In this document: in pieces, positions 23,051 through 37,220 of the stretch
How positions within the stretch are numbered: the first letter of the stretch is position 1
Layout: each line of letters begins with the position of its first letter
From: Candidatus Hydrogenedentota bacterium
Lineage (GTDB): Bacteria > Hydrogenedentota > Hydrogenedentia > Hydrogenedentales > SLHB01
Reading direction: 5' to 3'
Assembly (NCBI GenBank): GCA_045863295.1
Contig: BTWA01000027.1
Location: 25,025-89,024, forward strand
DNA length: 64,000 bases
Program-made: the position numbers and the translations under genes
Notes under the pieces: generated by a model
What the model was told of the DNA's origin: nothing
What the model saw: only the letters and a program-made list of their open reading frames with translations
Databases searched by the model: none

Positions 23051-23141
23051 ACCGGCCCCCATCTCCGGCTCGGGTCTTGAAGGCTCGGGAATGTCTATGC
23101 TAGCGTTACGCGGGCCTGAAACACCTTTGGAGACGCGATTT

Positions 23142-23261
23142 ATGAAGCACGTTCGCACAATGTCGAAGTTCCCCCAGCCCGCCACGATTGGTCCGGGACT
23201 GTCTTGGGTTCAGCAGTTGTTTCTGTTGTTGACCAAGGGCCGCTTTCTGCCCGTGAAGTAG
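23142..23261 (+). CDS. Small 39-aa peptide with MKH leader (MKHVRTMSKFPQPATIGPGLSWVQQLFLLLTKGRFLPVK)
   Basis: GGAG at 23129-32 before ATG; fills the gap between ligase and ferritin; N-terminus resembles ORF at 35919. Confidence 0.55.
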   Translation: MKHVRTMSKFPQPATIGPGLSWVQQLFLLLTKGRFLPVK

Positions 23262-23334: not shown

Positions 23335-23847
23335 ATGGCCAGCAAGAAGATGATCGAGGCACTCAACAAACACGTAAACCTAGAGCTGTACTCGGCCTAC
23401 ATTTATGCTGCCATGGCGGCGTGGTTCGACGGCGAAAACATGCATGGGTTCGCCTCTTGGATGAAGGCCCAAGCCGGCGAAGAAGTCGGACATGCCGCGA
23501 AGATGTACAAATACATCCATGACGTGGACGGTCGCGTGACGCTGGAAGCCATCGAAAAGCCCCAAGATCGGTTCAAATCCCCGCTCCAAGTATTCGAAGC
23601 GGCGTATGGCCACGAAAAGGTCGTAACCAAAGCCATCTACGCTTTGGTGGATCAGGCGATAAAGGAAGGCGATCATGGAACCAATGCCTTCCTGCAATGG
23701 TTCGTCAATGAGCAAATCGAGGAAGAGGCCACGGCCTCCGATGTTGTGGGCCGGCTGAAAATGGCCGGAGATGCTCCGGGAGCGTTGTTGCTTCTTGACC
23801 GGGAAATGGGCGGCCGATCCGCCGGAGCCGGCGAATCCGAAGAATAG
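23335..23847 (+). CDS. ftn: Non-heme ferritin
   Basis: NLELYSAYIY, QAGEEVGHA, LQWFVNEQIEEE ferroxidase motifs; AGGAG RBS. Confidence 0.92.
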   Translation: MASKKMIEALNKHVNLELYSAYIYAAMAAWFDGENMHGFASWMKAQAGEEVGHAAKMYKYIHDVDGRVTLEAIEKPQDRFKSPLQVFEAAYGHEKVVTKAIYALVDQAIKEGDHGTNAFLQWFVNEQIEEEATASDVVGRLKMAGDAPGALLLLDREMGGRSAGAGESEE

Positions 23848-32700: not shown

Positions 32701-35639
32701 GCGTAGAACCGAGCCATTCGCGTCAGGTCGTCGGACGATTGCTTGAGTTCCAGCGCCAGTCGCAGGGAATCGTATTTCCGCTCTTCGATTTCGGATTGTT
32801 GCTTTGCGCCGTCTAGAACTATAGATACCAAGGCCCCTACAAAAACGGTTAGACCGGAGAATGCGATGGAGATCATCAAAAGTGTTTGCCGGATGGTAAA
32901 TTGTGTAGGCCGTCCGATCGCAATCCATGCAAATACCATGAGGGCGACAGCAAGCGCGAATCCAAGCGCCAGAATCTGAAAAAAGGCTGAACCGGTCGGT
33001 GCCGCGGGAAGCAATTGGACTGGTTCTTCCGCACCTCTAACCCACTTCTGGCGGATTGCGGACTTTTCCGATTCGGATATGGTTTCCATGACTTTATTCA
33101 AAACGGACAATAGTATTGGCGAGTCGTTGCGAACACCAAACCCCAGATCGAGTGAAAGGTCGGTAAATCCGATGACGGCAAGATTTGAGACGCCGTATTC
33201 GGACATGATGTACGCGACCGTTGGATACGTTTCTATGAGAGCGTCGACTTTACCTTCTGCGAGGAATCGGACACCTTCCCGGACGGTGTCCACTTCGACA
33301 TAGTCCAAGGACGGAAATTGATCGCGAAACGGCACGATGTAGCCATAGTTTTTCACGACGGCGACCCGCTTTCGTTTCAGCTCATGGGGCGTGGACACTC
33401 CCGGTGTGCCCTGTCGCGCAAATACAACGACGGGGAATTTGATATAAGGCTGCGTAAATGTCAGCTCTTTGCGTTCGGAGTTGGTTGTCTCCGAGAGCAT
33501 ATCGACATTTCCTGTTTCGGCCAAATGCACGGCGTCCGTCCAGGCTGTAACAGGAATACGTTCGAATCGAACTCCAAGCCGTTGCTCAAATAGATCAAGC
33601 ATGTCGGCCACAATCCCGATATAGTTTCCTTCTGGCGTAAATGACTCTTGGGGCATCCAGTCTGGATCGCCCGTAAATCGAATTGTTGGATGTTCCCTCA
33701 ACCAGGCTTTTTCGTCGTTGGTGAGGGAGTTCCAAAGCAACTCCTTGGCTCCAACCTGACTCTGGGAACCGGTCACCATCCACGGCTTGGCAAGGGCCTG
33801 AGTCTCTTCTTGCGAAATGGATCCGATACCTTTGTCGAGAATTCGGGCCAAAATCGTATCTTCGTGCCTGACGCCCATGCGGATTTTGGCATGTTCCTCA
33901 TCATCAATTCCGGGGTCTCCAGTGATGCGTAAACCCGCTAGGAAGTTCTTTTGCATGGTGTAACGCAAGACTTCCCTGTTTCCGATAAAGGCGTCGGCCT
34001 GCTGATCAAGGACTGCCGTCATTCCATCGAGGAAAGATGGAACAAGCACAAGTGCTATATTGGGATAGTCCCTTCGGACGATTTCCTCGTAATAATACCC
34101 CTGCACCACGGCCAGACGCTTTCCATTGAGGTCGGATACATGGTTAATAGGCGGATAGTTTTCCCGGACGATTGTTGCCGATGGATTGTCGAAATACGGG
34201 CGGGAAAACGTCATAAATGATTTTCTGCCGGCCGTCTCGGATACCGTGGGCATGATGTCCACATCTCCACGCCTGAACATGGCCATTAGCCCTTCCCATG
34301 TGTGGCCGTATACGGGATTAAATCGTAAACCGATCTTGGTGCCGAGGGCGTGGAGGTAGTCCACCACAAAGCCTCTGGGTTCGCCATTTTCAACAAAGCA
34401 GAATGGTGGCCAATCCATTTCGATGGCCACATTCAGAACGGGGTGAGCACGAATCCAATCCATTTCTTCTGTCGTCAAAGGGACTGCCGGTTCCAAAGTG
34501 CCGGCATAGACGAATCCGGGTAGATCCTTTCCTCCTTCCAAGAAACCCAATTTTGCATAGGTGTCGGCGATGATTCGTTGTCGGGCGGGAAGGAGCGAGC
34601 CCAGGGCAACAAATTCGCGGGAAATCGCGACCGAGGTCATTTGCGCCTCGTATTCCAGTTTTTCTCGAGTCAATTCGCGCGTATTGTATTTGCTAAGGAT
34701 TAGGTCGATTACTTCGTCCGGATGGTCCAATGCGTAGTTCCATCCCCGCATAGTGGCTCGAATCATCTTCGGCACTCGTTGCGGATTGCGTGCGATCTCG
34801 GACTCCGTTGTGAACAGATTGTCACCGTAGAAATCCACACCGTAGCTCTGCGGATTGATGATATTTATGTCAATGCCCCTCTGTCGGAAATCGAACGGTT
34901 CGTTTGTGATGTAACCGTCGAGAACATCGACTTTGCCATTGATCAGGTCGTCTAACGTGAACGATTGGGGAATGTAGGAAATATTCGGGGTTCTGCCATG
35001 CGTGGCCATGATGGCTGCAAGCAGGGGCGCCTCATCGTGGGACCCGACATCCATCATGACGCGTTTGCCGTCCATTTCGAATGGACTTGTAATTCCACTT
35101 TCTCTTAGCGAAATGAAGACATGGGGTGAATGCTGAAAGATCTGCGTCAGCAACACGACAGGCATTCCCTTGGCTCTGTCAACGTACAAACCGGCATCAC
35201 CCACGCCGTATTCAGCCTTGCCGCCGGTCACAGCCTGTACCGGATTTGAAGTTGTATCTCGTTCCACCAAGAGAACGTCCAAACCTTCCTCGGCATAAAA
35301 CCCTTTTTCCACCGCCGCGTAGTACCCTGCAAACTGAAACTGGTTAAACCACTTGAGTTGAAGGCGAACCGTTTCCATATCTTCCGCGGAGCCCAATTGG
35401 TATTCAGGGAGCGCAGCAAGAATAAGAAGCAGGATGGCCCAATGGCGTACGACGGAAACTAACGCAATGGAAAAGCCGCGTCGGCACCCCGAGAGTGGCA
35501 TGCAATCCGAGTTGAGGAGGGAATTGCCATTTCGAATTTGAGTGGACAATTCTTGAAACGTCAAAACAACTACCTTCCTGCCCGAGGCTTGTTTGGACGC
35601 TGCTACGATCATTGCGTGCGCAAACCTAGCGCCAGTCAC
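29733..35639 (-). CDS. Large hybrid histidine kinase: NMT1/THI5-like + two amino-acid-type PBP domains, TM, sensor, HAMP, HisKA, HATPase, 2 REC, HPt
   Basis: [29 protein letters not shown] repeats, [17 protein letters not shown], two REC domains, [12 protein letters not shown]; start uncertain. Confidence 0.9.
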
Positions 35640-35825
35640 ATCTTAGCCCAATCCTACTCAGATTGAAATGCTATGTTTGCGGGGGATCCTCCAATATTCA
35701 TCCAATAGGAGGTGAACCGATCCGTGCTCAGGGGGTTAAGATGCCATGGCTGCCATGAACCTAGCCAGCGCGTGTAATGTTGCTGTACCTTGCGAGGCTT
35801 GGATTTTGCCTTGGCTAGAAAACTG

Positions 35826-35854
35826 TTGACAGAATTGCTCATCTCCGGTAAAAT
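35826..35854 (+). promoter_or_regulatory. Near-consensus sigma70 promoter
   Basis: TTGACA-17 bp-TAAAAT. Confidence 0.8.
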
Positions 35855-35918
35855 ATACTCGTGGGTCAAAGGACGCTCGGCTCTTTTACTTGAGCCAGTT
35901 ATGAGGAGAATGCAACCC

Positions 35919-36113
35919 GTGAAGCACTGCAAACGCATTACCAAATCCCTGCCAATTGTGGCGGCTCCGTGGGCGGAATTCGTATGCCGGGTGTCGACCA
36001 TTTGGTTCGATATCCTGTCGACCAAGCAGGGCTCAATTCCATTTTTGACCTACATCGACGAAAAGTGCCAGCCGAGCGAAGATTTGGAAGGTCAAAACAA
36101 TACCGGCGGATAA
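35919..36113 (+). CDS. Small 64-aa protein with MKH leader (MKHCKRITKSLPIVAAPWAEFVC...DEKCQPSEDLEGQNNTGG)
   Basis: GAGGAG RBS at 35903-08, GTG start, own promoter and terminator. Confidence 0.7.
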   Translation: MKHCKRITKSLPIVAAPWAEFVCRVSTIWFDILSTKQGSIPFLTYIDEKCQPSEDLEGQNNTGG

Positions 36114-36144
36114 TCCTCCTTCGAGAACTGGACAAAATCAATCC

Positions 36145-36179
36145 GGGCACATGCAGGGGATCCTGTTTGTGCCTTTTTT
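36145..36179 (+). terminator. Intrinsic terminator after the small ORF
   Basis: GGCACA-GCAGG / CCTGT-TGTGCC stem followed by TTTTTT. Confidence 0.75.
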
Positions 36180-36362
36180 ATTTGACCCAGTTCAATTTAG
36201 GTTCTCTCTTGCCATGCAGTGGCGCCTCATCACCGTTCGTGACACGTTGCAAAGGCATACATGAATACATAAGGCGAAAGTCCCGAAAAGCGGGACTTAA
36301 TCTGGCGGACCTGAACGGTCGGTCACGAGGCCTAGGATGATTTTCCAGGCGGGAGCGATATA

Positions 36363-36572
36363 ATGGGAGAATCCCTAAATCAGTCCGGTGCTGGTGAAGT
36401 GACCTGTTCATTTTGTGGCAGAGCCATGCGGCCGTCAAACGGAAACCGCTGGACCGCAACCGTGGCATTTGAGTGCCCGCCCTGTGAAAACTATCGGTTG
36501 GTAGTACGGTCAGGGCGCGAGTTTCCACCTATGATTGGCTTGCTTTACCCGCAATACATGCCGTCCCGATAG
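36363..36572 (+). CDS. Small putative zinc-ribbon protein (69 aa)
   Basis: CSFC...CPPC pair; GGGAG before ATG. Confidence 0.45.
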   Translation: MGESLNQSGAGEVTCSFCGRAMRPSNGNRWTATVAFECPPCENYRLVVRSGREFPPMIGLLYPQYMPSR

Positions 36573-36710
36573 TCGAATTCCCTTCCACCAAACGTCAACC
36601 ATGCGGCATTTGAAGCGTCTCAATTTCAGGTGCTATACTTTTCCAACGTATTCGTTGACAACAGCTTGCAGCGGCCAATTCGCTTCAAAGCGGCGATAGA
36701 ATGGGCATCC

Positions 36711-37220
36711 TTGCGTGCATACTTGAGTCTTGGCAGCAACCTTGGTGACAAGACCGCCAATCTGGTCTTGGGTATTCGAGGCATCGCGGCATTGCAGGGA
36801 GTACGTTTGAACCGCGTATCCAGTTTTTACAAGACAAGGCCTTGGGGATACATCGAGCAGCCTTCTTTTGTCAATGCGGCGGCCGCGGTTACGACCGACC
36901 TAGACCCCGTTGCGTTACTGGATGACCTCCAGGCCGTCGAACGCGGGCTTGGACGTGTACCGGGTACGCGCTGGTCGTCCAGGGTGTTTGATGCGGATAT
37001 CGTACTTATGGACGAGTTGCAGGTGGAGTCAGAGAGGTTGTGTATTCCGCACCGGCTCTTCCGGGAGCGCGCATTCGTACTGATTCCACTCGCCGAGATT
37101 GCAGCTGAAGTTGTAGACCCGGTATCTGGAAGGGCGATTGGCGAATTAGCCGGGCTTTTCGGGAACGATGCTGGTTTGGTTAAGATTGGTACTTACGAAG
37201 ATTTTGCACTAAAGGTGTAG
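36711..37220 (+). CDS. folK: 2-amino-4-hydroxy-6-hydroxymethyldihydropteridine pyrophosphokinase
   Basis: AYLSLGSNLG, QPSFVNAA, IPH..RAFVLIPL; start uncertain. Confidence 0.9.
   Translation: MRAYLSLGSNLGDKTANLVLGIRGIAALQGVRLNRVSSFYKTRPWGYIEQPSFVNAAAAVTTDLDPVALLDDLQAVERGLGRVPGTRWSSRVFDADIVLMDELQVESERLCIPHRLFRERAFVLIPLAEIAAEVVDPVSGRAIGELAGLFGNDAGLVKIGTYEDFALKV

Follow-up and report, generated by a model that had tools for sequence, protein, structure and literature searches.

A shared N-terminal tag on dispersed small proteins of Candidatus Hydrogenedentota and a candidate CteB-like docking partner

Why should two small genes some 13 kb apart, with products that otherwise differ, begin with nearly the same residues? 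The question is raised by a 64,000-nucleotide (nt) stretch of contig BTWA01000027.1 from a Candidatus Hydrogenedentota bacterium, hereafter the window, in which a stand-alone gene predicts a 64-amino-acid (aa) peptide whose N-terminus resembles that of a 39-aa open reading frame (ORF) at 23142. An earlier note had pointed out this likeness from the letters of the window and had suggested a dispersed, possibly undescribed peptide family. Both suggestions are borne out here. The likeness exceeds chance in matrix and regex controls, and a tag of about 16 residues is common to many otherwise unrelated small ORFs of the phylum. Judged by comparative sequence data, the 64-aa ORF genuinely codes for a protein, has a promoter and a terminator of its own and is present at about one copy per genome across Candidatus Hydrogenedentota. 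As to what the tag does, we give roughly an even chance to a reading in which it is a leader that docks on a CteB-like protein, with acylation, cleavage and export to follow and with dispersed precursors served in trans. Hydrogenedentota are uncultured and their cell biology is barely known, and the tag offers a simple handle on real small genes that gene callers and family libraries have missed.

A tag common to otherwise unrelated small proteins

The tag follows the pattern M-[KR]-H-[ILVM]-x-x-[ILVM]-[ST]-[KRQ]-x(1-3)-P-x-x-A. A strict regex of this form matches the six-frame translation of the genome 55 times, with 11 matches after ATG, GTG or TTG where codon frequencies predict 2.8, and 7 after ATG against 0.9 expected. 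At a threshold of 12 bits, a matrix built only from the orthologues of 23 relatives, and hence independent of the window genome, picks out 7 start-codon sites, where the reversed genome yields 1; at 16 bits the counts are 4 and 0. A profile of 35 tags (A3) brings up 11 short ORFs that score at least 15 bits, and 1 when the genome is reversed, a comparison that is partly circular as 10 of the 35 tags come from this genome. The tag of the 64-aa peptide scores 23.0 bits with the independent matrix and 27.9 bits with A3, and that of the 39-aa peptide scores 24.3 bits with A3, which includes both.

About 11-13 small ORFs of this genome carry the tag: two in the window, three in tandem on contig C30, two on C74, one each on C25, C10 and C13, and a probable pair on C9. 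The C9 ORFs, on the forward strand with starts at 86820 and 87143, are 86 and 74 aa long (11.5 and 16.7 bits), are probably in tandem and are alike in sequence after the tag. Across the phylum, 100 of 101 sampled genomes have matches to the tag profile at E<=5, this one having 15 and the richest (G088) 24; as a gauge of background, two genomes of other classes (G041, G042) have 1 and 4 and G082 has 0. Among the matches listed for the phylum, nearly all begin at the first position of the profile and lie in open frames of about 40-130 aa; many are tandem copies.

His3 is invariant in all 35 tags of A3, including those on cores without cysteine, and the cores of different tagged families cannot be aligned. 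Across these 35 tags we thus find a leader-plus-core layout with paralogues carrying different cores, as is asked of precursors of peptides made on ribosomes and modified after translation (RiPPs). The idea of a conserved basic leader on a variable core is supported by the tagged families, with the caveat that the window peptide's own core is conserved. No PDB sequence matches A3, and NCBIfam has no model that matches 22 other tagged peptides at E<=1 or either of the window peptides at E<=10. Literature searches, as far as their listings and the openings of abstracts go, returned nothing that names the tag, the 64-aa family or the cassette described below.

The 64-aa gene and its lipoprotein neighbour

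The window peptide is a nearly universal, single-copy, slow-evolving member of the tagged set with two cysteines. A six-frame search of 40 relatives turned up the 64-aa protein in 25 of them with E<=1e-3 and in 38 with E<=1, at about one copy per genome. We fetched 25 of these loci, 23 recovered by tblastn and the other two by the tag scan, and the ORF is intact in all of them, at 51-67 aa. The ratio of nonsynonymous to synonymous substitution rates (dN/dS) is 0.05-0.18 in the five of six gap-free orthologue pairs for which it could be computed, with synonymous sites near saturation in the pairs used and saturated in the sixth. A profile search of 1.84 billion representatives extended the family to 163 clusters at E<=1e-3, 118 of which reach E<=1e-10; among the 150 clusters listed, six are long repetitive proteins that look spurious, and the rest are 45-104 aa long and mostly matched from residue 1 or 2. 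A word-indexed protein search had returned the query alone, which reflects a limit of that index, given the 163 clusters in the whole library.

In alignment A1 (24 sequences), M1, H3, P12, C23, P41 and C50 are invariant and G37, G38 and K49 nearly so. Besides Cys23 and Cys50, the window copy has a third cysteine at position 4. An AlphaFold2 model computed on A1, with a mean predicted local distance difference test score (pLDDT) of 62.7, shows a disordered tag (residues 1-12), helices at 13-34 and 41-50 with a G-G-x-x-P loop between them, and a loose tail. None of the 24 members matches a Pfam or NCBIfam model at E<=1; the best PDB sequence match to A1, at E 0.14, is to unrelated proteins, and the ESM Atlas gave no usable match for the family.

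The usual neighbour of this gene is a lipoprotein gene. In 31 of 35 loci of the 64-aa family, a gene for a lipoprotein of about 200 aa with leucine-rich repeats (LRR_4) lies 62-591 nt downstream on the same strand; some of the ten loci from public contigs duplicate species already counted, and the sampled-genome loci taken alone give 21 of 25. The N-terminus of the LRR protein is a signal ending in G-C-P. In this genome the LRR gene is on contig C58 with no tagged ORF before it, and the window gene is followed by folK. A partner that is an exported lipoprotein would fit an extracytoplasmic role for the peptide, where a disulfide between Cys23 and Cys50 could arise. With their genes paired in most relatives, the two-cysteine peptide and the LRR lipoprotein make a testable candidate for a peptide and its receptor in the bacterial envelope.

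The gene has the parts of a complete transcription unit (Table 1). The earlier note had described promoter, ribosome-binding site, ORF and terminator as a self-contained unit, and each element could be located in the sequence, with GTG rather than ATG as the start of the ORF. The stop-to-stop frame extends further upstream and holds in-frame ATGs at 35901 and 35910. In 23 of 23 orthologues examined, an ATG, GTG or TTG followed by x-His lies 6-11 nt past a GGAG-type site, and for this reason we take GTG 35919 as the start. Between 35000 and 37200 there are 3 promoter-like sites, that of the gene included, against a shuffle mean of 2.0. Upstream of the orthologues, 21 of 23 relatives have an exact TTGACA, a spacer of 16-18 nt and a TAAACT-like -10 element at a distance of 58-137 nt, a count made without a shuffle control. 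The terminator stem-loop (36145..36174, with a T-run to 36183) folds at -25.8 kcal/mol (z -2.8), as well as which 1 of 200 shuffles folds; a simple consensus terminator scan missed it because the stem has an internal loop.

Around this promoter some smaller observations may be recorded. Among the upstream regions of L003-L027, the TAAACT is followed in at least 14 of 21 relatives by N-TTTAC-AA, giving a short inverted repeat, GTAAA-N3-TTTAC, over the -10 element and the likely transcript start. The repeat is a possible operator, whose window copy (35849..35865) is degenerate. In three relatives a sigma-54 activator gene stands just upstream of the peptide gene (L006:1-1167, L017:1180-2802, L022:3358-5469), and neither the window nor the 23 relatives show a sigma-54-type (-24/-12) promoter pattern upstream of it.

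Table 1. Positions in the window of the 64-aa gene, its signals and associated genes
Feature	Position	Strand	Remarks
Promoter, sigma-70-type	35826..35854	+	TTGACA-17-TAAAAT; 11 of 12 consensus positions
Shine-Dalgarno sequence	35903..35908	+	GAGGAG; 10 nt from the start codon
Coding sequence of the 64-aa peptide (family-1)	35919..36113	+	GTG start; stop included
N-terminal tag	35919..35966	+	Codons 1-16; M-K-H-x-K-x-I-T-K-x-x-P-x-x-A-A
Core	35967..36110	+	Predicted helix, G-G-x-x-P loop, helix; invariant Cys23 and Cys50; loose C-terminal tail
Intrinsic terminator	36145..36183	+	G+C-rich interrupted hairpin, then TTTTTTATTT
Second tagged gene, 39 aa	23142..23261	+	ATG start; GGAG at 23129..23132, 9 nt upstream of the start
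Ferritin gene	23335..23847	+	74 nt downstream of the 39-aa tagged gene
Hybrid histidine kinase gene, 1968 aa	29733..35639	-	Divergent from the peptide gene

A cassette with a CteB-like protein, and what the tag may do

One of the settings in which tagged genes occur is a gene cassette. Here 2-5 tagged peptides are followed by two or three GNATs of the Acetyltransf_3 (RimJ/RimL) type, a CPBP/Rce1-like protease, an ABC ATPase, an ABC-2 permease and a protein of 640-670 aa. In this genome the cassette lies on C30, in the order three tagged ORFs, 3 GNATs, CPBP, ABC ATPase, a 317-aa ORF without a family match and the 642-aa protein P0153 (L040:2866-4794); the order recurs in L095, L096 and L099. 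In 19 of 20 further loci, chosen among the 94 genomes with P0153 so as to have room on the contig and to span families, tagged ORFs (10 bits or more) stand just upstream of the cassette; the twentieth (L116) showed none. P0153 is present, mostly once, in 94 of 101 sampled genomes; of the 81 that are of high quality, 79 have it. Six of the 7 genomes that lack P0153 have a best tag E-value above 0.1 or no match at all, and among the 94 that have it the number is 8, a comparison that is descriptive only, the genomes being related. As for the check on neighbours proposed earlier, for peptidases, transporters or modification enzymes near the hits, the genes just described accompany the cassette peptides, and nothing of the kind adjoins the window gene.

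P0153 matches the NCBIfam models for SCIFF, nif11, PapB and other peptide maturases at E 1e-13 to 1e-21, all far below the models' cut-offs, and its C-terminus is RimL-like; public records call it a 'SPASM domain-containing protein', 'hypothetical' or 'uncharacterized'. Its AlphaFold2 model (pLDDT 83.7) has strands at 7-11, 14-19 and 24-28 and helices at 30-36, 44-51 and 57-72 at the N-terminus. The first Foldseek match of the model is CteB (5wgg_A; E 3.4e-17, TM score 0.70 by target, 479 columns), and the C-terminal part matches the GNATs SpeG, RimL and RimJ. CteB consists of a RiPP recognition element (RRE) at the N-terminus, a radical-SAM barrel and a SPASM domain, as a review sets out (PMC8172795). 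The model shows P0153 with the predicted fold of this SCIFF maturase, having an RRE-type beta3-alpha3 N-terminus, a barrel and a SPASM-like part, with a GNAT domain added at the C-terminus. The CxxxCxxC triad of radical-SAM enzymes is absent from 4 of 4 P0153 homologues, in which the conserved cysteines fall into two groups, C-F-C-F-E-C near the N-terminus and C-x2-C-x5-C...C. In 23 homologues the C-F-C-F-E-C (residues 23-28 of P0153) is conserved or nearly so, and it maps to strand three of the RRE-like domain, the strand that pairs with the leader in known RREs.

A complex of P0153 with the window peptide, predicted from their alignments, scored a median of 0.60 (runs of 0.60, 0.50 and 0.68) against 0.00 for the best of 3 controls, which the procedure labels weak support. 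The mark that this score reached is also reached by 116 of 157 solved complexes and by 2 of 215 mismatched pairs, at 0.60 or below by 18 of the 157 and by both passing mismatches. Between runs, at least 54% of the contacts are shared, and the partner has a pLDDT of 38-40 (at least 37 as the tool states it).

We propose a model in which the tag would dock as a leader on the RRE-like domain of the CteB-like protein. The GNAT domains would then acylate the peptide, the CPBP protease would cut off the tag near P-x-x-A, and the ABC-2 system would export the product. A single cassette would in this way serve scattered precursor genes in trans, the window gene among them. The mature product of about 48 residues would be a two-helix hairpin that a Cys23-Cys50 bond could staple outside the cytoplasm, and it may act together with the LRR lipoprotein. 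If so, tag and cassette would together make up a leader-peptide system of a new kind, in which many tagged proteins could be docked, acylated, cut and exported, with parts that differ from those of Nif11, NHLP and prochlorosin systems, above all a radical-SAM maturase turned into a non-radical scaffold.

Several observations weigh against this model. No enzyme, protease or transporter adjoins the window gene, the cassette being on another contig (C30) and the LRR gene on C58. The whole peptide, core included, is single-copy and under strong purifying selection, which suits a structural or signalling protein better than the hypervariable core typical of natural products. With the radical-SAM cluster lost, no chemistry can be assigned to the central protein of the cassette, and since most cassette peptides are without cysteine, the two invariant cysteines of the window peptide have no obvious enzyme there. 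Ferritin, to which the second window peptide is linked, is a cytoplasmic protein and gives no pointer to export. The complex score carries the label weak with a poorly folded partner, and the peptide model itself stands at the pLDDT of 62.7. One genome (G067, 88% complete) has a tag match at E 0.004 and no P0153. No SCIFF, Nif11 or NHLP model matches the peptides. Expression, cleavage, modification and export of the peptide are all predicted steps.

A different account of the same facts takes the tag as a general N-terminal address or interaction motif, for another route of export or membrane insertion or for a common chaperone, which the cassette peptides merely share; the window protein would then be an unmodified small partner of the LRR lipoprotein that never meets the cassette. 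We regard this as possible, if rather doubtful. It draws on the many unrelated contexts of tagged genes, each with a conserved neighbour of its own (LRR lipoprotein, ferritin, ECF sigma and anti-sigma factors, nrfHA), on the slow-evolving, single-copy core of family-1, and on the lack of linkage between window gene and cassette in every genome where both are placed on contigs. Set against these are the co-occurrence of cassette and tag across the phylum and the fact that, of the tag-linked proteins found, the cassette's CteB-like protein alone has a fold recognised as peptide-docking; no further candidate receptor came to light, in work that included no systematic search for one. The complex prediction counts on the same side, having reached its mark at 0.60, a pass labelled weak, with the best control at 0.00. 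The invariance of His3, Cys23 and Cys50 in 24 of 24 sequences could instead point to a small cytoplasmic protein, metal- or redox-active or regulatory, that uses these three residues and shares its N-terminus with other proteins by common descent and not as a processing signal. By eye, no hydrophobic signal sequence of the Sec or Tat kind shows in the first 20 residues (no hydrophobic run of 10 or more), and one tagged relative is linked to ferritin, both as such a protein would have it. Yet all 35 tags, those on cysteine-free cores included, have His3, which is thus a residue of the tag and no part of a site formed with the cysteines; nor can the different tagged families be aligned in their cores, and the usual neighbour is an exported lipoprotein. 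We consider this account improbable.

That the ORF goes untranslated, with the locus making a small RNA instead, or that the two ORFs are alike by accident, we think hardly credible, and the comparative data already contradict this. The stand-alone position in an intergenic gap of 1 kb would suit a small RNA, and transcript and peptide data cover no part of the ORF (two RNA runs contain small shares of the 2.8-kb stretch, and the RNA contigs cover none of 35834..36491), which is uninformative either way. At gathering thresholds Rfam finds nothing in the whole window, and at E<=10 its sole match in 35400..36800 is asX2 at 36247..36298, at 18 bits where the cut-off is 70. Start codon and Shine-Dalgarno sequence are conserved, the dN/dS stays at 0.05-0.18 with synonymous sites near saturation, and the tag is in excess over both reversed-genome and codon-frequency controls. 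The small-RNA reading was dropped on the dN/dS values.

Returning to docking on the CteB-like protein, a bolder form of it can be imagined, which we would put forward tentatively and expect to fail sooner than to hold. Here the MKH tag would be a phylum-wide, Sec-independent address label, and up to two dozen small proteins per genome would pass through one machine made of the dead radical-SAM scaffold, the GNATs, the CPBP protease and the ABC-2 system. This would be a general pathway of maturation and secretion and not a natural-product cluster, and the window peptide, as its nearly universal client, would be a disulfide-stapled hairpin and the ligand of the envelope LRR lipoprotein.

Among systems already described, the nearest is SCIFF/CteB, yet what we find here falls outside SCIFF. 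The likeness to the SCIFF or ranthipeptide systems (CteA or Tte1186a with CteB/ScfB; PDB 5WGG; TIGR03973, TIGR03974) consists in the CteB fold of P0153 over about 480 residues, in its weak matches to the ScfB, nif11 and PapB maturase models, in a beta3-alpha3 domain where CteB has its RRE, and in small precursors with a short N-terminal tag beside the enzyme, as the cassette peptides are. SCIFF precursors may themselves begin with a similar tag. The differences begin with P0153 itself, which is without CxxxCxxC and has a GNAT fused at its C-terminus. The peptides are not rich in cysteine, the 64-aa family having two invariant cysteines where SCIFF has six in the C-terminal 45 or so residues. 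The window gene is unlinked to the enzyme; it neighbours a histidine kinase gene and folK, with no active radical-SAM/SPASM maturase adjacent, and the only related maturase found in this genome is the one on C30 that is without CxxxCxxC. The SCIFF precursor model (TIGR03973/Pfam SCIFF) matches none of the 24 members of A1 at E<=1; over the whole genome it gives 6 hits, none on a tagged ORF, the best (E 0.26) being an out-of-frame Cys/Arg-rich stretch and thus noise. SCIFF systems are known from Clostridia, going by PMC8172795, whereas ours is from Hydrogenedentota.

Other comparisons are looser. Nif11, NHLP and prochlorosin systems use one enzyme for many dispersed precursors, with leaders several times longer than 16 or so residues. 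They resemble the present system in logic only, namely a conserved leader on unrelated cores, genes both scattered and in tandem, and a single processing locus; they differ in that the tag here has about 16 residues and matches no NCBIfam model, the exporter is of the ABC-2 type, and no lanthipeptide synthetase or cyclodehydratase is present. Class II bacteriocin loci combine a leader peptide with an ABC exporter and CPBP/Abi-type proteins, and the tandem small amphipathic or hydrophobic peptides beside CPBP and an ABC transporter are reminiscent of them. Its GNATs and its CteB-like protein set the cassette apart from those loci, as does its near-universal, not strain-specific, distribution over the phylum. 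A double-glycine leader end (G-G, G-A or G-S) is not found in the tag, which ends in P-x-x-A, and no search for a C39 peptidase was made; the G-G of the 64-aa family, at residues 37-38, is inside the core loop.

Other tagged settings and the surroundings of the gene

The second tagged gene of the window stands directly upstream of a ferritin gene on the same strand (Table 1), and it does so in 4 of 4 genomes that have the peptide, this one and three relatives (G005, G011 and G029; L029, L030 and L031). Beyond the lipoprotein and ferritin settings, several recurrent ones, that of the cassette included, appeared in 16 arrays and top hits, chosen as tandem or high-scoring, so that the sample is biased to arrays, and with selected neighbours scanned (57 and 31 ORFs in two sets). 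In one recurrent setting an extracytoplasmic function (ECF) sigma factor and an anti-sigma factor of about 520 aa with a zf-HC2 domain precede 2-6 tagged peptides (L084, L085, L086, L088, L089, L090, L091), and contig C74 of this genome (L041:25-1447) has the same arrangement. Two types of peptide recur in these ECF-linked arrays across genomes, one rich in tryptophan and one ending in a conserved W-L-Q motif. A further setting consists of tandem tagged peptides of 29-32 aa with Lys/Pro-rich repeat cores of the K-P-V-K type (L087:8023-8525, L093:2653-3138), to which the C25 copy is similar; that copy (L042:5918-6034) lies after a YkuD transpeptidase gene and before an LRAT/NlpC-like gene. Short tagged peptides with a pair of cysteines make up another (L094, L035). 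On C10, a 50-aa tagged ORF (L043:9685-9837) is immediately 3' of nrfH-nrfA, which encode the cytochrome c552 nitrite reductase, on the same strand.

The 64-aa gene itself sits in an intergenic gap of 1 kb, with the gene for the 1968-aa hybrid histidine kinase on the minus strand to one side and folK-panB-panC to the other. From its translation alone, the kinase appears to be laid out as several periplasmic solute-binding-like regions, a HAMP domain, the kinase, two receiver domains and an Hpt-like end.

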